Assembly: GCA_963821415.1 (NCBI GenBank)
Contig: CAWGEE010000007.1
Span: 725 to 64,724 of the forward strand
Origin: an uncultured Actinomycetes bacterium
Lineage (GTDB): Bacteria > Actinomycetota > Thermoleophilia > Gaiellales > Gaiellaceae
Length of the DNA stretch: 64,000 nt
Direction: 5' to 3'
Shown in pieces: positions 3,390-35,996 of the stretch. Position 1 is the stretch's first letter, and each line of letters opens with the position of its first letter. The position numbers were made by a program, and so were the translations under genes. The notes under the pieces are model-generated. The model searched no databases. It was not told the origin of the DNA and was given only the letters and a program-made list of their open reading frames with translations.

Positions 3390-5316
3390 CGGCCTTCGAC
3401 CTTGGCGCGGGCCTGGTCGAGCAGGCCTCCCGGGAGACCCGCAGGCCCGTACGGGTCGAGGCCGTACGCTCGGTCGAGGTGGATGTACGCGTCCCGGTAG
3501 CGGCGTAGCTCGAACTCGTAGGCGCCGAGCGCAAACCACGTGTCGGAGTTCTCGGGCTGGAGTTCCGTCGCCTGGAGATAGCGGTCGAGCGTCCCGCGCG
3601 GGATTCCTTGCCGTCGCCTCCGCGAGCGCCCACGCCCAGAGCGGCTCGACCGACAGCGGATTGAGATCGTGAGCCTGGCGCGCGGCGGATCGTGCGGCCC
3701 CTGCGTCGCCTCTGGCGATGGCCGAGTACGCGTCCTCGACTCTGCGCTGCGAGATCCAGGGTGCGGTGATCGAGTAGAGGACGGCGAGCGCGACGACTCC
3801 CGCGCCGAGCGCGAGCGCGCGGACGGCTCCGCGGCGCCCCCGGCAAGCGGCCCGCCGACAGCAGCACGCCCGTCGCTACCAGCACAGGAGCCGAGGCGGC
3901 CACGAAGTCCCAGTCGATGTCGGCCAGCGCGTGCAGCAGGTAGACGGGCAGCAGCACGGCGAGCGCCGTGGCCGCCGGCTGCTCGTCACCGTCCAGCCGT
4001 CTCAGCGCCTCGCGGCATGCGAGCAGGGCGAGGCCTGCGGCGCCGATGCCCAACAGCAGGCCGACGATTCCCAGCTCTGCCAAGCGACTGGACGCCGATG
4101 TTGTGCGGCTCCTCCGTGACGACCGAGCCGACGCGCAGCGGGCGGCGGGCGATCTCGAACGTGTGCGCGCCGTGGCCTCCGGCGGGCTCGTCGCGAAAGA
4201 GCTCCCACGACTCCTGCCACCACGTCCAGCGGTTGTTCGAGCTCAGCTCGGCCAGCCGCCCCGAGCCCTGCGCGACGTCCCCGCCGCGGAACTCGTCGAA
4301 CCACTCGTCCGGACCGCCGACGGCGATCGTGGCAGCGATGACCGCGACCGCCGCCAGACCGGCGAGCGCTGCCGCGAGCGTGATCGTCCAGACGCGCCGC
4401 TCCTCGTTCGAGAAGCGCTCGCCCAGCCGCGCGCCGTAGTGGGAGAGCGCGAGCGCAGCCGCACCTCCGATCACGAGGACGAGCGCGAACCAGGCGCCCG
4501 CTCGCTCACGCGTGCGCGGAGGTCTGGAGGTGGTCGACGAGCCCCGGCTGCGTCGAACGCCCACGCCGCGACGACGAGCCCTGGCCCGGCGCCTGCGATG
4601 AGCATCAGCAGCCCCTCGAAGCGGTCGCGACACAGCCAGAGCCAGAGCCCGACACCCACCGCAGCGACGACGATGCCCGCCCGCGAGTACGTCAGCACGA
4701 GGGCGATCGACGCGACGTAGAGGAGGACGATGCCGCCGGCGCGCACGACGCGCGCATGCCGGCGCCCGGCCGCCAGCCACAAGCCGAGCGGCAACGCCAG
4801 GGCCGCGATCAGCGCCAGCGCGTTCCAGTAGCCGATCGGGTTCCGTAGCCGAGCCACGCGCGCCCCGTCCGGGAACAAGCCCGGGAAGACCTTGCCCAGC
4901 AGCGCCCACCCCAGCACGCCGAGAAACAGCGCCGCGAGCAGTCCCGCGGTCATCGCACGGGCCGTCCGACGCACGAGCGCCCCCACGTACAGCCCGACCA
5001 CGGCGAGCGCGAGATACGCGAGCCCCCGGTTCAGATACGCCCACGACCGGTCGGGCGCGATCGACCAGACGATCGTCAGTCCGCCCCAGAGGACGAAGGC
5101 CGCGAACAGGCCGAGCGCTAACCAGCCATGTTTCGTCGGCGTCGGACAGGGAAGAAAGCCGAGCAGCGTCGCGAATACCAGGACCAGTGCCGTCAGCGAA
5201 GCAACGATTCCAATCCAGAACAGCCGCCCGTCACTCGAGCCGTGACCGAAGAAGAGCGCGACCACCAGCAGCGCGCCCGCGACGCCGAGGACCGAAAGCC
5301 CTGCGGCCGCTCGCAT
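3386..5316 (-). pseudogene. O-antigen ligase/polymerase (Wzy_C)-like polytopic membrane protein with C-terminal TPR-like tail; at least 4 frame breaks
   Basis: ORFs 4471..5316, 3986..5044 and 3349..4083 (all minus) each carry a consecutive piece: many TM helices, YSRAGIVVAAVGVGLWL, NNRWTWWQESWELFRDEP, HNIGVQ/LAELGIVGLLLG. The tail DTWFALGAYEFELRRYRDAYIHLDRAYGLDPYGPAG...AKVEGR is in yet another frame. Breaks lie near 4530, 4085, 3850 and 3620. Confidence 0.6.
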
Positions 5317-30777: not shown

Positions 30778-30938
30778 CCGAACACCCCCTCGATGTGGGC
30801 GTCCTACCCCTTTATTGGACGCAAAAAACGCTCGTCGGTAAGCCACAACGCTAGGGGCCGCCCGTAAATGCCCCCTGAGAGCGACGTAAGTGGCGCGTAA
30901 GGCGTGGTGTCAGGGCGGTGAACGCGGCGATGCACGTG

Positions 30939-31734
30939 CTATGCGGTTCGGCCGTAGTACATGCGCTGCGCCATCGCGCTGAGCATGTGCCCGGGCTCGA
31001 CGGAGTACGTGAGCACGGAGTTCATTCGCGGCGTCGAGCCGACGACGGGCGGCACCCGGTGGAGCGAGTAGCGGCCGCGGAAGAACGCGAGCGTGCCCGG
31101 ATCGGACGCGAGCTGTCTTGGCCGGCGTGTCGCCGATCAGCACGGAGCGGACCGCGTCGTAGCGCTCGTCGTCGGGCGTTCGCACCATCGGCGCGTACTC
31201 GAAGTCGCCGCCGGCCTGCGAGCGCTGGATCATCAGCGTCACGGAGAACTCGCTCTGGTCGAAGTGCCAGCCGAGCTCGTCTCCCTGCTCGTAGACCGTC
31301 ATGTTCACGCCGTCGAGCGGGTCGGCGCTGCGGTACAGCTCGTCCTTCTCGAGAGCCGCGGCGACGAACGCGAGCACCTCGTCCGATGCGTAGATGCGCC
31401 GCGAGCCGAAGTCTTCCGGCATCAGATCCATCGCGACCGCCTTCTGGGCCGAGCGGACCTCGATGCGCCGCGGGTGGTCCACCGGCAGCGACTCGTCGAT
31501 CTCGTCGTCGAAGTAGCAGTTGTGGGTCGCGTCGTTCGGGTAGCCCTGGGTGGCCAGGTCGCCGGCCTCCTCCGCCATTCGCTCAACGGCGTCCGGTCGG
31601 ACGAAGCCGTCCAGGCGGCACGCACCCTCGCTGCGGAGGGCGGCGCGACACTCTGCGACGAGCCCCTGCGCGGCCGCGCCTTCGAGCTCGTGAATCGGAT
31701 AGCGATCGAGGTCGATGAGGTCGTCCAGCGCCAC
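30939..31734 (-). pseudogene. Fe(II)/2-oxoglutarate-dependent oxygenase (HxD...H type; resembles free-amino-acid hydroxylase/halogenase family), one frame break
   Basis: ORF 30910..31734(-) has GDELGWHFDQSEFSVTLMIQ (the HxD triad). After ~31125 the family tail LASDPGTLAFFRGRYSLHRVPPVVGSTPRMNSVLTYS...RMYYGRTA (distal His, Arg) is in another frame and stops at 30939-30941. Confidence 0.6.
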
Positions 31735-31755
31735 GATCGCGACTTACAAGGAGGA

Positions 31756-31841
31756 CTTGGCGAAACAGTGACTGAGCCGCCGGAATCACGCTGGAGGCCG
31801 CGCGGCGTCCTCGGTCCCGACGATTGTACCGTTCCGCCAAG
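31756..31841 (+). repeat. partial copy of the sodA-upstream palindromic element
   Basis: 31758-31816 (TGGCGAAACAGTGACTGAGCCGCCGGAATCACGCTGGAGGCCGCGCGGCGTCCTCGGTC) matches the reverse complement of 34048-34109, apart from 2 substitutions and a 3-nt indel. CTTGGCGaAAC (31756-) can pair with GTTcCGCCAAG (-31841). Confidence 0.8.
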
Positions 31842-31866
31842 CCCTACCGCGCTCTACGATCACGTC

Positions 31867-32661
31867 GTGGTCGATGCGAAGCTCGTCGACTCCTTCCGCC
31901 GCGACGGCGCGGTCTGCATCCGCGGCGCGTTCACCGACGACGAGGTGGCGCTCGTCGCCCAAGGCATCGAGCGCAACCTCGCCGAGCCGAGCGAGCTGGC
32001 CCTCGTCGCGAGCCGTCCGGACGACCCGGGCCGCTTCTTCGAGGACTTTCGCGGCTGGCAGCGCATCCCCGAATACGAGGAGTTCATCCGCGAGTCGGCC
32101 GCGGCGCAGATCGCCGGCGAGCTGATGGGCTCAAAGCAGGTACGCCTCTTCCACGACCACGTGCTCGTGAAGGAGCCGGCGACACGTCAGCCGACGCCGT
32201 GGCATCAGGACCAGCCGTACTACAACGTCGACGGCCGGCAGGTCTGCTCGCTCTGGATGCCCGTCGACCCGGTCGACCGCGAGTCGACTGTCGAGTTCGT
32301 CGCCGGCTCGCATCTCGGTCCGTGGCTCATGCCGAGGACGTTCATGGACGCGGAGGCGAAGTGGTTCCCCGAGGGAACCCTCGAGGACCTGCCCGACATC
32401 GAGGGCAATCGCGACGGCTTCGAGATCCTCGCGTGGGAGCTCGAGCCGGGAGACTGCGTCTACTTCCACATGCTGACGCTCCACGCAGCAGGTGGAGCTA
32501 CGAGACGGCGGCGGGCGCTCTCGATCCGCTTCCTCGGCGATGACGCAACGCATGCGCCGCGCCGCTGGAAGACGTCGCCAGACTTTCCCGAGCTCGCCGA
32601 CCTCCCTGCGGGCGCTCCGATGCGTCACGAGCTGTTCCCCGTGCTGTGGAGACGCGACTAG
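31867..32661 (+). CDS. phytanoyl-CoA dioxygenase (PhyH)-family Fe(II)/2OG oxygenase
   Basis: Distal part of ORF 31093..32661. Motifs include FRRDGAVCIRGAF, PTPWHQDQPYY (HxD) and GDCVYFHMLTLHAAGG. My preferred start is GTG 31867 (TACGAT 31855-31860-N6-GTG). The alternative is GTG 31768 inside the repeat, which would add 33 aa. Confidence 0.8.
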   Translation: MVDAKLVDSFRRDGAVCIRGAFTDDEVALVAQGIERNLAEPSELALVASRPDDPGRFFEDFRGWQRIPEYEEFIRESAAAQIAGELMGSKQVRLFHDHVLVKEPATRQPTPWHQDQPYYNVDGRQVCSLWMPVDPVDRESTVEFVAGSHLGPWLMPRTFMDAEAKWFPEGTLEDLPDIEGNRDGFEILAWELEPGDCVYFHMLTLHAAGGATRRRRALSIRFLGDDATHAPRRWKTSPDFPELADLPAGAPMRHELFPVLWRRD

Positions 32662-32664
32662 CGG

Positions 32665-33300
32665 CTACCAGCCGTCCCAGTGCACGATCGTCTCCAGCGG
32701 CTTGCGCCGCGCGGGACGGAACTCGGTGCCGATCGTGTACGCGACGGGGATGAGGGCGACCTGCATCACCTCCGCGTACGGGATCCCGAGCAGCTCGGCG
32801 GCCTCCTCCTCATGGGCGAGGTGGAACGTCGTCCAGCAGGTGCCGAGGCCGCGCGTGCGGGCGGCGAGCATGAAGCTCCACACGGCGGGCACGATCGTGC
32901 CGAAGCGGGACGCCTGGTGGGGAATCGGCTTGCCGTCCGTGCGACCCTCGATGCACGGGATGACGTGCACCGGCACGTCGCCGATGTGATCCATCAGGTG
33001 CCAGACGGAGTCGAGCAACCGCCGCGTGCCATCGGGTAGCTCCACGTCGGGCGCGGGCCGCTCCCCTCCCAGGTAGCGCTGACCGAACCGGCGCCAGAGC
33101 TCGCCCAGAGCAGCGCGCTTCTCGGGATCGGTGACGACGACGAAGTGCCAGTCCTCGCGGTAGCTGGCCGCCGGCGCCTGCTGTGCCAGGCGAAGGCAAT
33201 CCTCGAGCACCTCGCGCTCGACGGGCCGCTCGAGGTCCAGCCGCCGCCGCACCGCCCGCGTGGTGGACAACACCTCGTCGGGCGTCAGGTCGAGCAGCAC
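32665..33300 (-). CDS. nitroreductase-family protein
   Basis: Part of ORF 32665..33372(-). Motifs include TTRAVRRRLDLERPVEREVLEDCLRLAQQAPAASY and ...AARTRGLGTCWTT. The start is set to GTG 33300, just after the sodA stop; the longer ORF would overlap sodA by 60 nt. Confidence 0.75.
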   Translation of the reverse strand: MLLDLTPDEVLSTTRAVRRRLDLERPVEREVLEDCLRLAQQAPAASYREDWHFVVVTDPEKRAALGELWRRFGQRYLGGERPAPDVELPDGTRRLLDSVWHLMDHIGDVPVHVIPCIEGRTDGKPIPHQASRFGTIVPAVWSFMLAARTRGLGTCWTTFHLAHEEEAAELLGIPYAEVMQVALIPVAYTIGTEFRPARRKPLETIVHWDGW

Positions 33301-33311
33301 TCGGTTCTCGC

Positions 33312-33920
33312 TCAGGAGGAGGCTTCCGCGTAGCGGCGGCCGACCTCGTCCCAGTTGACGACGTTCCACCACGCGGCGAGATAGTCAGGCCGCCGGTTCT
33401 GGTACTTGAGGTAGTAGGCGTGCTCCCAGACGTCGATGCCGAGCAGCGGCACGTCGTCGGTCAGAAGCGGGCTGTCCTGGTTCGGCAGCGAGTAGACGGC
33501 GAGTCCCGTGCCGTCCCACACGAGCCAGGTCCAGCCAGAGCCGAAGCGCTTCACGCCTGCGTCGTTCACCGCATCCTTGAGCGCCTGGACGCTGCCGAAG
33601 ACGTCGTTGATCGCGTCTGCGAGCGAACCGGTCGGCTCGCCACCGCCGTCGGGGCTCATGAACGTCCAGAAGAGCGAGTGGTTGGCATGGCCGCCTGCGT
33701 TGTTGCGAACGGTCGTGCGGATCTCCTCCGGTAGCGCGTCGAGGTTCGCGAGCACCTGCTCGACCGACTGGTCGGCCCACTGCGTCCCTTCGAGCGCCTT
33801 GTTCGCGTTGTCGACGTACGCCTGGTGATGCTTGCCGTGGTGGATCTCCATCGTCTGCGCGTCGATGTGCGGCTCGAGCGCGTCCAGCTCGTAGGGCAGT
33901 GAGGGAAGGTCGAAGGCCAT
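33312..33920 (-). CDS. sodA: Mn-type superoxide dismutase
   Basis: C-terminal part of the artefactual ORF 33312..35846(-). The sequence reads [72 protein letters not shown]. The GGH and NQD positions point to the Mn type. An AAGGAGAC SD is present. Confidence 0.92.
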
Positions 33921-33952
33921 GCGGGTCTCCTTTGTGGCTGTCCCGGCGATTC

Positions 33953-34119
33953 TAGGGGGGTCTGGCGGAACGGTGCTCGTCGCCGGGGCGCGCTGGAGGT
34001 TGTGATGCAAGGACGCAGGGAGCCCGCGTACTAGTAAGTACGTGGGCGACCGAGGACGCCGCAGCGCGGCCTCCAGCGTGATTCCGGCGGCACAGTCACT
34101 GTTGCGCCAGACCCCCCTA
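33953..34119. repeat. 167-bp imperfect palindromic element (MITE-like or structured leader) between sodA and the OCD-family gene
   Basis: The terminal 15-bp perfect inverted repeats are TAGGGGGGTCTGGCG (33953-33967) and CGCCAGACCCCCCTA (34105-34119). Further arm pairing includes AAC/GTT, GTG/CAC, CGCTGGAGG/CCTCCAGCG and an apical stem 34022-34047 around the loop TAGTAA. The outermost dinucleotide is TA on both sides. Confidence 0.8.
34031..34099 (-). CDS. 22-codon mini-ORF inside the palindromic element ([22 protein letters not shown])
   Basis: The GTG at 34099 lies 12 nt after AGGGGGG. The same frame in the 31768 copy reads [16 protein letters not shown]..., after AAGGAGG at a similar distance. 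The copies differ by one codon substitution and one in-frame 3-nt indel. Confidence 0.2.
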
Positions 34120-34130
34120 AAATCACTTGC

Positions 34131-35052
34131 TTGCGCGAGATGCTCGTTCTGGGCGAAGCGGACGTCGAGGTGCTCCTCGACCCCGCCGGCTGTCTCGAGG
34201 CAGTCGAGCGCGCGCTCGTCGCTCTCGCGCGCGGCGAGATCCATCTGCCGCTGCGGATGATCGTGCGGCCGCCCGGCGAAGAGAGCCTGATCGGGCTGAT
34301 GCCGGTGCATCGCGGCGGCGAGGAGCGGCTCTACGGGTTGAAGACCGTCGTCATCGTGCCGGGCAACTCCGCGCGCGGTCTCGATCCGCACCAGGGCACG
34401 GTGACGCTGTTCGACGGCGAGACCGGACAGACGATCGCCGTCATGAACGCGTCTCCGATCACCGCCATCCGTACTGCGGCGGCCAGCGCGCTCGCGACCC
34501 GCGAGCTCGCGCGGAAGGACGCTCGCGTGCTGGCCATCGTGGGCACGGGGCACCAGGGGCGCGCGCATCAGCGGCTGCTCCCCGCCGTCTTGCCGTTCGA
34601 CGAGGTGCTGATGGCGGGCAGAGGCGACGCCGAAGCTGCGGTGCGGCAGGCGGACGTCGTGGTCACGGCGACGAGCTCGAGTGAGCCTGTAATCCGGCGT
34701 GAGTGGCTCAAGGACGGCACGCACATCAACGCAGTCGGCGCGTGCTTCCCGCACACACGCGAGCTGGACTCGGCCACGGTCGCCGCCTCGACGTTCATCG
34801 CCGACCGGCGGGAGTCGGCAGAGAACGAGTCCGGCGACTACCGCCTCGCGCTCGCGGAAGGCGCGATCGCCGAAGATCACATCGCAGCGAGAGCTGGGCG
34901 ACGTGCTCACGGGCGCGCACCCGGGCCGCACGTCGGCGGACGAGATCACGGTCTTCGAGTCGCTGGGAGTCGCGGTCGAGGACCTCTTCGCCGCCGAGTA
35001 CGTCGTCCGCCGGGCGCGGGAGACCGGTCGCGGCATCGCCGCCGACTTTTGA
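34131..35052 (+). pseudogene. ornithine cyclodeaminase/mu-crystallin family protein, one frame break
   Basis: First part of ORF 34131..35996, including the Rossmann motif [13 protein letters not shown]. After ~34889 the family tail [42 protein letters not shown] is in ORF 34699..35052. TAAAAT (34118-34123)-N7-TTG 34131; the alternative start is ATG 34140. Confidence 0.8.
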
Positions 35053-35996
35053 TTCCGATCGACGAGATTCGCCGGGCGGCGGACGTGATCGCCGGCGGGG
35101 CTCTGCGCACTCCGCTCGTGCGTGCGCAACTGCCGGACACGCCGTGCGAGCTCTGGCTCAAGCTCGAATGCTTGCAGCCGGTCGGCGCTTTCAAGATTCG
35201 CGGAGCGTTGAATGCCATGAGGCAAGCCCCTGAGGCAGCGCTGGCCGCCGGCGTCGTCACTCCGAGCGCCGGCAACATGGGGCAGGCAATCGCGTGGGCG
35301 GCCCGCAACGCAGGCGTCGGCGCCACGATCGTCGCCCCCGACCATGCCCCGCGCGTGAAGCTGGCGGCCATCGAGCGGCTCGGCGGACGGGTCGTCACAG
35401 TGCCGTTCGAGCGATGGTGGCAGGTGATGGAGGAGGGGCGGTTCGAGGGCAATGACGAATTCTTTGTCCACCCCGTGCGGGACCCACTCGTCATGGCGGG
35501 CAACGGCACGATCGGGCTGGAGGTCATCGATGACCTGGCGACGCCCGATGCCGTCGTCGTACCAGTCGGCGGCGGCGGCCTGGTCAGCGGGATCGCCAGT
35601 GCAGTCAAGGTGGCGAGCCCCGGTACGCGCATCATCGCCGTCGAGCCCGAGACGGCCGCGCCCCTGGCGGCGTCGTTCGCCGCCGGTGCGCCCACTGAGA
35701 TCGCCTACCAGCCGTCCTTCGTCGACGGCGCAGGCGGCCGCAGCATCCTGCCCGGAATGTGGCCGTTGCTGCAGGAGGTCGTCGACCAGGCCGTGACCGT
35801 CTCCCTCGAGGAGACCGCGCGGGCCGTGCGCCTGCTCCTGGAACACGCGAAAGTGGTGGCGGAGGGGGCCGGCGCCCTTGCCACGGCCGCTGTGCTGGCC
35901 GGGCGTGCAGGCTCGGGTCGCGTGGTGTCCGTCGTTTCGGGCGGCAACATCGACGCGCCCGTGCTCGCGCGCATCGCCGGCGGGGACATCCCGTAG
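35049..35996 (+). CDS. PLP-dependent threonine/serine dehydratase-like enzyme (PALP fold)
   Basis: TTG 35049 overlaps the stop of the previous gene (TTGA). Motifs are [17 protein letters not shown] (PLP Lys), [13 protein letters not shown] and the glycine loop [11 protein letters not shown]. The single 621-aa ORF in the track is an artefactual fusion. Confidence 0.85.

Follow-up and report, generated by a model that had tools for sequence, protein, structure and literature searches.

A ~165-bp non-autonomous mobile element family of Gaiellaceae, folded as a single hairpin on one defined strand

What is the origin of a near-perfect 167-bp palindrome lying between sodA, a superoxide dismutase gene, and an OCD/mu-crystallin gene in an uncultured member of the Gaiellaceae? 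The palindrome occupies positions 33953-34119 of a 64,000-bp stretch of contig CAWGEE010000007.1 (hereafter the window). An initial annotation, made from the sequence of the window, noted a partial inverted copy 2.2 kb away and proposed a small non-autonomous mobile element, a repeat of the repetitive extragenic palindromic (REP) type, or a structured leader shared by redox and metalloenzyme genes. The first proposal is supported: the palindrome is a member of a ~165-bp non-autonomous mobile element family of Gaiellaceae (Actinomycetota), with about 100 dispersed copies, and the sites of both window copies are empty in close relatives. Moreover, structural constraint holds the element, along its entire length, to a single long hairpin, on one defined strand only.

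The family was delineated by scanning a genome collection with a pattern made of two conserved cores, GGCG.AAC.GT ... AC.GTT.CGCC; both cores were demanded, so that intact copies are over-represented. At least 114 stretches were retrieved, and some 48 of the matches listed are full-length homologues, 72-98% identical to the sodA-OCD palindrome (copy 1) by BLAST and nhmmer. Their hosts are all Gaiellaceae, or metagenome-assembled genomes (MAGs) classified as "uncultured Actinomycetes" or Actinomycetota. The other stretches, found in other phyla, were chance pattern matches. Another 58 copies were found in JGI metagenome contigs, giving about 100 in all, 165-170 bp long and located at unrelated loci. 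Several genomes are rich in scattered copies, with, for instance, at least four over the 3.1-Mb chromosome OY969889.1 and at least nine in HAY_GM_MAG_00002. The family termini read GGAGGGYYTGGCGGAACGGTG. The forward alignment of copies was always far better than the reverse one, and the family therefore has a defined polarity. A pattern scan had no match in viral contigs, and blastn in distant mode gave only chance hits in the plasmid collection. Within the 64-kb window, a pattern search, a repeat finder and nhmmer detected no copies besides the two. As Rfam 15 gave no match over the window at gathering thresholds (with E values up to 10, only chance miRNA-like hairpins appeared), and no counterpart was met in the literature searched, this family of soil Gaiellaceae is apparently undescribed.

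Some copies are incomplete. One partial copy (L015 3102-3170) keeps only model positions 53-122, and two others (L143 3302-3422 and L183 280-400) keep positions 26-147; in all three the inner part is present and the terminal arms are absent.

The organisation of copy 1, and the position of its partner (copy 2), are as follows.

33953-34120, plus strand: copy 1 (el1), long form; the plus strand is the best-folding ("top") strand.
33952-33955, plus strand: pre-existing target CTAG, centre of GATTCTAGAATC, directly after which the insert begins (empty alleles in contigs L116, L117, L125 and L126).
33964-33976, plus strand: invariant 5' core GGCGGAACGGTGC, which pairs with 34097-34108 and has two conserved G·U(T) wobbles (alignment columns 15-27).
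34009-34022, plus strand: near-invariant purine-rich internal-loop motif AAGGACGCAGGGAG, 5' side, defined by alignment conservation.
34022-34047, plus strand: covarying apical stem-loop (pairs 79-87 with 94-102, 7-19 double changes each).
34046-34059, plus strand: near-invariant internal-loop motif GCGACCGAGGACGC, 3' side, whose AGGACGC forms a direct repeat with the 5' motif.
34097-34108, plus strand: invariant 3' core CACTGTTGCGCC, partner of the 5' core.
34118-34120, plus strand: TAA, the last three bases of the insert at its 3' end, in the place where TAG would be expected after simple duplication of TA; the third base is G in all four empty alleles.
About 31745-31849, minus strand: copy 2 (el2), ~100 bp, with both arms and the central ~65 bp deleted; its top strand is the window minus strand and its junctions are degraded.

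The exact 15-nt termini described in the initial annotation, TAGGGGGGTCTGGCG at 33953-33967 and CGCCAGACCCCCCTA at 34105-34119, were verified, as was the apical stem around the loop at 34022-34047. The idea that the entire element folds into a single rod-like hairpin was equally borne out: as RNA, the plus strand of copy 1 reaches -130.1 kcal/mol (z = -12.3; none of 200 shuffles was equal), against -100.0 kcal/mol (z = -8.1) for the minus strand. The same asymmetry was obtained with DNA parameters, -66.2 versus -52.7 kcal/mol.

Covariation was examined in an alignment of 46 copies (A2). Standard pairs fill 95.8% of the cells, and compensatory double changes are found in 32 of the 61 pairs; none of 500 shuffles reached any of these measures, and slid controls were about 40% paired. 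In the apical stem, for instance, GCGTAC/GTACGT, CAATAG/CTATTG, CGATAG/CTATCG and TCGTAGC/GCTACGG replace one another. The pairs backed by covariation are long-range, from arm to arm (e.g. columns 30-36 with 147-152), and not local hairpins within an arm. The terminal inverted repeat TAGGAGGGYYTGGCGGAACGGTG pairs with its complement at the opposite end, and its core columns do not vary: GGCGGAACGGTGC and CACTGTTTCGCC are invariant in the 46 copies, and the 5' core is a likely protein recognition site. The internal loop has purine-rich motifs, AAGGACGCAGGGAG and GCGACYGAGGACGC, that hardly vary; tandem G·A pairs may form between the two sides of this loop.

The pairing is that of one strand. 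On the top strand, 2192 cells hold Watson-Crick pairs, 381 hold G·U pairs and 91 are unpaired, whereas the same positions read on the other strand give 2192, 18 and 454, respectively. Individual pairs shift via U·G and almost never via C·A; column pair 13-171, for example, is UA in 17 copies, UG in 16, CG in 12 and non-standard in one. The top strand has G·U/G·T wobbles and loops rich in purines, where the opposite strand would bear A·C and pyrimidine mismatches. The consensus structure had been derived on the top strand, but folding each strand independently is free from that bias, and in each of the 46 copies it gave the top strand the greater stability (means -122.7 and -93.0 kcal/mol). This advantage is equal for copies lying sense or antisense to the neighbouring genes. 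Therefore, local mRNA is not what maintains the bias.

Close relatives were searched for empty sites, which turned up for the two window copies and for two further loci. Four syntenic contigs (L116, L117, L125 and L126), reached through SodA homologues of 93-95% identity, have a sodA-OCD spacer of only 45-54 bp, which reads GATTCTAG|AATCAC. The window reads GATTCTAG + GGGGGTC...GACCCCCC-TAA + AATCAC, and the palindromic target GATTCTAGAATC is uninterrupted in the four relatives. By this comparison, the inserted DNA of copy 1 is 33956-34120 (165 bp; GGGGGTC...GACCCCCC-TAA). The outermost part of the inverted repeat drawn in the initial annotation, GATTC-TA ... TA-AAATC, belongs to the target rather than to the element. 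Between the genes for a HalD-like 2-oxoglutarate (2OG) oxygenase and PhyH, two empty alleles (L116 and L117) have the spacer gcgacTCTAGcgctc. The third locus is the stop codon of an M48 protease gene, empty in L123 (GGCGAGTAG|ATCGG) and filled in L087 (...TAG + GAGGG...CCTCC-TTGG + ATCGG). The last is the stop codon of a histidine kinase gene, empty in L122 (GAGCTAG|CCGC) and filled in L049 (...TTAG + GAGGG...CCCTCC-TACTGG + CCAC). Contigs L119-L121 had been considered as empty sites devoid of TAG, and were ruled out; the true empty allele is that of L123, which carries GTAG. Both window copies are lineage-specific insertions.

In all four resolved insertions the insert starts directly after a pre-existing TAG (CTAG in three, GTAG in one), which is a stop codon in two. 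The 3' junctions are less regular: TAA, TTGTAA, TTGG and TACTGG. None of the four shows a clean TA+G, and all end with T-purine-purine. A polar insertion 3' of a fixed short target, with no duplication, fits the four filled/empty pairs, a sample of four sites only, without any extra mutation. The flanks of 99 copies were then inspected. At the 5' end, TA precedes GGAGG (as TAG) in 67 copies, the base before it being C in 58 (87%), T in seven and G in two. At the 3' end, TA follows CCTCC in 58 copies, of which 23 continue with A, 16 (28%) with G, 13 with C and six with T; the commonest triplet after CCTCC is TAA (23 of 99). The asymmetry between 5' C and 3' G is highly significant (Fisher test, p = 1.2e-11), which argues against simple TA duplication of the IS630 type and favours a polar, single-strand mechanism of the IS200/IS605 or REP kind.

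Copy 2 had been described as a partial inverted copy of the right arm. The inverted match is real (31749-31812, 64 nt, 86% complementary to copy 1), and the two window copies have an exact 24-mer in common, for which zero chance matches are expected. Aligning both strands of both loci showed however that copy 2 is not a one-arm fragment: it is a complete element, with both arms, standing in place of the CTAG of the empty alleles (gcgacTCTAGcgctctacg). Its apical loop differs from that of copy 1, the two belonging to different subfamilies, and they therefore result from independent insertions and not from a local duplication. A contig 98.6% identical to the window, L001, was reached by an exact-protein look-up with SodA. 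There the situation is reversed, with a short form of ~80 bp at the sodA site and a long form of ~165 bp at the PhyH site. The end points of the deletions differ between the two strains and are located at 3-nt microhomologies, although central deletions and single-base junction details are provisional, since the window and L001 are separated by 18 gap openings in 9.9 kb. We read this as central deletions that would have arisen independently, because long palindromes are unstable, rather than as an exchange of copies between sites. The initial annotation had also suggested that the inverted pair might promote inversion of the 2.2-kb segment; no inversion was seen in the syntenic contigs examined (L001, L116 and L117). 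Despite the overall identity of the two strains, the junctions of copy 2 (window 31845-31849 and 31745-31749, versus L001 12065-12072 and 12236-12244) differ by several substitutions and indels, and these hypervariable junctions adjoin, on the upstream side, the start codons of PhyH and of the HalD-like gene.

Copies are randomly oriented relative to their neighbours: about 13 are tandem-sense, 14 tandem-antisense, 11 convergent and six divergent. A long open reading frame (ORF) with a high GC content at third codon positions ends exactly on the 5' TAG of the element in about 17 of 46 copies, and about 12 of the 46 have an opposite-strand ORF that stops on the TAG formed at the 3' end. The tetranucleotide CTAG is rare in this genome, with 28 occurrences in the window versus 184 expected from base composition (~6.5-fold depleted; GATC occurs 576 times), and stop codons and -10 boxes account for most of the sites that persist. 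This depletion elsewhere explains that insertions pile up at stop codons and, at sodA/OCD, in the TCTAGA of a double -10 box, and hence that copies often supply a TAG stop codon. At least one remaining CTAG, that at 32658, consists of C and the TAG stop codon of PhyH. Two copies adjoin the 3' ends of tRNA genes, one in L110 (3758-3997) at 0 nt after tRNA-Arg(TCG) and one in L113 (4349-4594) at 6 nt after tRNA-Gln(CTG).

Other flanks bear on the history of the family. In L044 (3015-3040, TACTAG-TGGCGGAACGAC...) and L035 (~3570-3594, TACTAG-CCTCCCTAGGA...), the 3' flanks of copies resemble fragments of further copies, which suggests insertion beside or into older copies, at the CTAG ends of the latter. 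An orthologous site is filled in two species (L014 6220-6385 and L027 3086-3254); a YkuD L,D-transpeptidase gene borders it with its stop codon on one side, and a ResA-like thioredoxin gene lies on the other. With 75.8% identity between its flanks, the site holds two elements that are distinguished by compensated changes, and each of them is closer to other copies of its own genome than to its orthologue, a pattern that suggests concerted evolution or re-insertion. In-situ flipping of the element at orthologous sites was also considered and rejected: the candidate pairs were paralogues only 31-53% identical, save for one true orthologous pair, which has the same orientation.

How does such an element move? 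By analogy with known systems, we favour mobilisation as a single-stranded, top-strand hairpin by a polar enzyme of the HUH type, similar to those of IS200/IS605 or of REPs with their REP-associated tyrosine transposases (RAYTs), and we give this reading a probability of about 0.5. The moving form would be the hairpin of top-strand single-stranded DNA. The enzyme, acting in trans like IS200/IS605 TnpA or a RAYT, would cut after the 5' (C)TAG and after the 3' T-purine-purine triplet, and insertion would occur 3' of another TAG, with no target duplication. Recognition would rely on the invariant cores, GGCGGAACGGTGC and CACTGTT(T/G)CGCC, and on the invariant AGGACGC loops. A precedent exists in GTAG-tagged REPs, which supply TAG stop codons and are cleaved by RAYT at the tag, as single-stranded DNA (PMC3733652).

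Several observations weigh against this scenario. No Y1/HUH transposase was found by tblastn with IS200 TnpA over ~1.3 Mb of genome fragments, a search with low sensitivity for RAYTs, and Pfam and PHROGs scans of the flanking ORFs had no transposase among the families listed. Nor were solo termini, which would mark an autonomous parent, detected in the ~1.3 Mb examined. IS200/IS605 elements usually show an orientation bias relative to the replication strand, and no significant bias relative to GC skew was measured here (36/87, p = 0.13). The missing transposase and the missing GC-skew bias weaken the HUH proposal. Classic IS200/IS605 ends form separate left and right hairpins and REPs are units of 20-40 nt; the single hairpin of ~75 bp found here is unlike both layouts. 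Between about half and ~60% of the copies carry TA at their two ends, and a TA duplication followed by fast decay is possible. The base following the 3' TA is no more often common to close relatives than to distant copies, and the hypothesis that the 3' triplet travels with the element, drawn from the shared tails of related copies, had to be dropped for lack of statistical support. Finally, the T-purine-purine rule was drawn up after the four cases had been viewed, and nearly all data come from MAG and metagenome assemblies, in which small indels at junctions could be assembly errors.

[quoted passage not shown] The TA of CTAG would then be duplicated, and the hairpin would be a by-product of long terminal repeats, or of selection at the RNA level after insertion. 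IS630 targets CTAG and duplicates TA, in keeping with the predominance of CTAG among the empty targets. TA flanks both ends of many copies, is kept about equally at the two ends where neither is a stop codon, and decays through transitions at both. ISY100 is reported to insert at TA (PMC2170065), and the pneumococcal RUP is believed to owe its mobility to IS630-Spn1 (PMC3049150). However, the four resolved 3' junctions all deviate from TA+G, and a palindromic target predicts 3' G to be as frequent as 5' C, which is not what the flanks show. In addition, double-stranded cut-and-paste gives no ground for pairing restricted to one strand (381 versus 18 wobbles, 46 of 46 copies), independently of the direction of transcription, and neither solo termini nor a transposase were found in the sequence examined. 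The suggestion that the TA-flanked termini recall IS630/mariner elements fits the CTAG/TAG target and the inverted termini, and fits less well with the junctions, none of which is a clean TA+G, and with the asymmetric flanks. More tentatively still, the element may represent an unknown class of single-hairpin mobile elements of Actinomycetota, handled as a single strand and homing to TAG/CTAG (effectively to stop codons) without duplication, with a dedicated enzyme that would be distinct from canonical RAYTs as well as from DDE transposases of the IS630 type and would read a code of AGGACGC loops and tandem G·A pairs. If this were true, it would be a REPIN-like, long-lived replicator outside Proteobacteria.

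The structure might also be kept for the host. An RNA element (a terminator, an insulator, a stabiliser of mRNA ends or a site for RNase III), spread by transposition and retained for its top-strand RNA hairpin, would account for positions at stop codons and between convergent genes and for the great stability of the ~75-bp rod, whose G·U pairs are characteristic of RNA. ERIC, Correia, BOX and REP sequences, which act in transcripts, are precedents (PMC3049150; PMC3733652). Such a role, compatible with either transposition mechanism and perhaps superimposed on it, is nevertheless unlikely: orientation relative to flanking genes is random, and antisense copies, on which local mRNA cannot select, keep the top-strand bias. 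A U-tract is absent, scans for sigma-70 promoters and intrinsic terminators around both copies gave no hits, and close relatives manage without the element at the same sites. The notion of a cis-regulatory leader, or of a small-RNA gene, common to the redox and metalloenzyme genes sodA, PhyH and 2OG oxygenase appears very improbable. Its structure is backed by covariation, and one further site adjoins thioredoxin-like genes, but the sodA-OCD spacer of the four relatives lacks the element, Rfam has no match for it, and no common theme unites the 57 flanking proteins, whose Pfam hits span 84 unrelated families. No conserved promoter for a leader was seen, because the flanks of the copies are unrelated. 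Unrelated flanking genes and random orientation thus remove the redox leader proposed in the initial annotation.

The proposal of a REP-like repeat is correct in part. The element resembles REP/REPIN-RAYT systems in that the hairpin has an xTAG tetranucleotide at its outer foot and in termini that often give flanking ORFs their TAG stop codon (PMC3733652). In both cases a doublet folds into one large, strand-specific stem-loop kept by compensatory changes, action is as single-stranded DNA (for the present element, as proposed above), and copies are numerous, located at gene 3' ends, persistent over long times and homogeneous within a genome. In contrast, the tag is CTAG (87%) and not GTAG, the arms are of ~80 nt with invariant internal loops and not self-palindromic units of 20-40 nt, the host is actinobacterial, and no RAYT was found adjoining any copy. 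With IS200/IS605 and their derivatives, the element shares polar insertion just 3' of a short fixed sequence without duplication, an imperfect hairpin functional on one strand only, and short motifs that are similar but non-identical between the left cleavage/target site (TAG here) and the right end (TAA or TGG here). It differs by its one full-length hairpin, in place of separate left-end and right-end hairpins, and neither TnpA/TnpB nor a replication-strand bias was detected. The IS630-type MITEs (e.g. pneumococcal RUP), ERIC, Correia and BOX are likewise imperfect palindromes of 100-170 bp dispersed between genes, with a target of the TA/CTAG type and promoter hexamers that can be carried or recreated at their ends, and BOX supplies the stop codons of 36 genes (PMC3049150). 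The present element differs from these in its asymmetric flanks, irregular 3' junctions, strong one-strand wobble pairing and full-length covariation; it has no sequence similarity to them, and no cognate insertion sequence was found. It is best filed as a new family of bacterial small mobile hairpins, between MITEs and REPINs.

The consequences of insertion can be followed at sodA/OCD. The features surrounding the two copies, in a window whose genes are housekeeping only, are these.

30910-31734, minus strand: HalD-like 2OG oxygenase gene.
31867-32661, plus strand: PhyH gene.
32665-33372, minus strand: nitroreductase gene.
33312-33920, minus strand: sodA (Fe/Mn superoxide dismutase; Pfam Sod_Fe_N and Sod_Fe_C), neighbour of copy 1 and outside the element.
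33948-33953, minus strand: -10-like hexamer TAGAAT facing sodA, remnant of the split palindrome, with an AAGGAG Shine-Dalgarno sequence and the sodA ATG (33920) downstream.
34118-34123, plus strand: -10-like hexamer TAAAAT facing the OCD gene (ATG 34140), made of the 3' TAA of the element and of the flank.
From 34140, plus strand: OCD/mu-crystallin gene, followed by a PALP enzyme gene.

In the empty spacer of the relatives (L116 4961-4972, L117, L125 and L126), GATTCTAGAATC consists of two overlapping, outward-facing TAGAAT hexamers similar to -10 boxes. Copy 1 split this palindromic double -10 region, leaving each gene with a -10-like hexamer and with element DNA upstream of it. The hexamers TAGAAT and TAAAAT may function as promoters; the consensus scan found no full sigma-70 site.

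The neighbourhood shows other peculiarities. OCD and PALP (threonine-dehydratase-like) form one fused ORF of 621 aa in the window (34131-35996), with an OCD Pfam match broken mid-way; L001, L116 and L117 have separate genes (303-323 and 315-319 aa, 4-nt overlap), and the fusion is probably a frameshift or homopolymer error of assembly. A multicopper oxidase gene lies between sodA and the nitroreductase gene in relatives (L116 5673-7601, L117 5674-7603, L125 1032-2138), together with an HTH_20 regulator gene in L116 and L117. Both are missing from the window and L001, a difference of ~2 kb, and almost nothing separates the sodA ORF from that of the nitroreductase in the window (33312-33372). 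The HalD-like ORF has an Arg/Ala-rich C-terminus of ~60 residues, outside its Pfam match (residues 26-215); the protein has 264 aa in L116 and L117, and a frameshift close to the 3' end of the window ORF is possible. No tRNA or tmRNA gene was detected in the 64-kb window.

These results add a well-defined and strongly covarying family of mobile repeats to the Gaiellaceae, an abundant soil lineage, represented here by MAGs and metagenome contigs only. The family provides a clean natural case of a small element that is under one-strand structural selection over its entire length, independently of host transcription. Such selection is hard to square with ordinary cut-and-paste MITEs, and it makes the question of the mobiliser, possibly a single-strand HUH-type enzyme, a testable one. 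These repeats provide genes with stop codons, interrupt promoters (sodA/OCD being a case in point) and vary between strains that are 98-99% identical. Left unannotated, they will therefore confuse gene calling, the discovery of non-coding RNAs and the comparison of strains.

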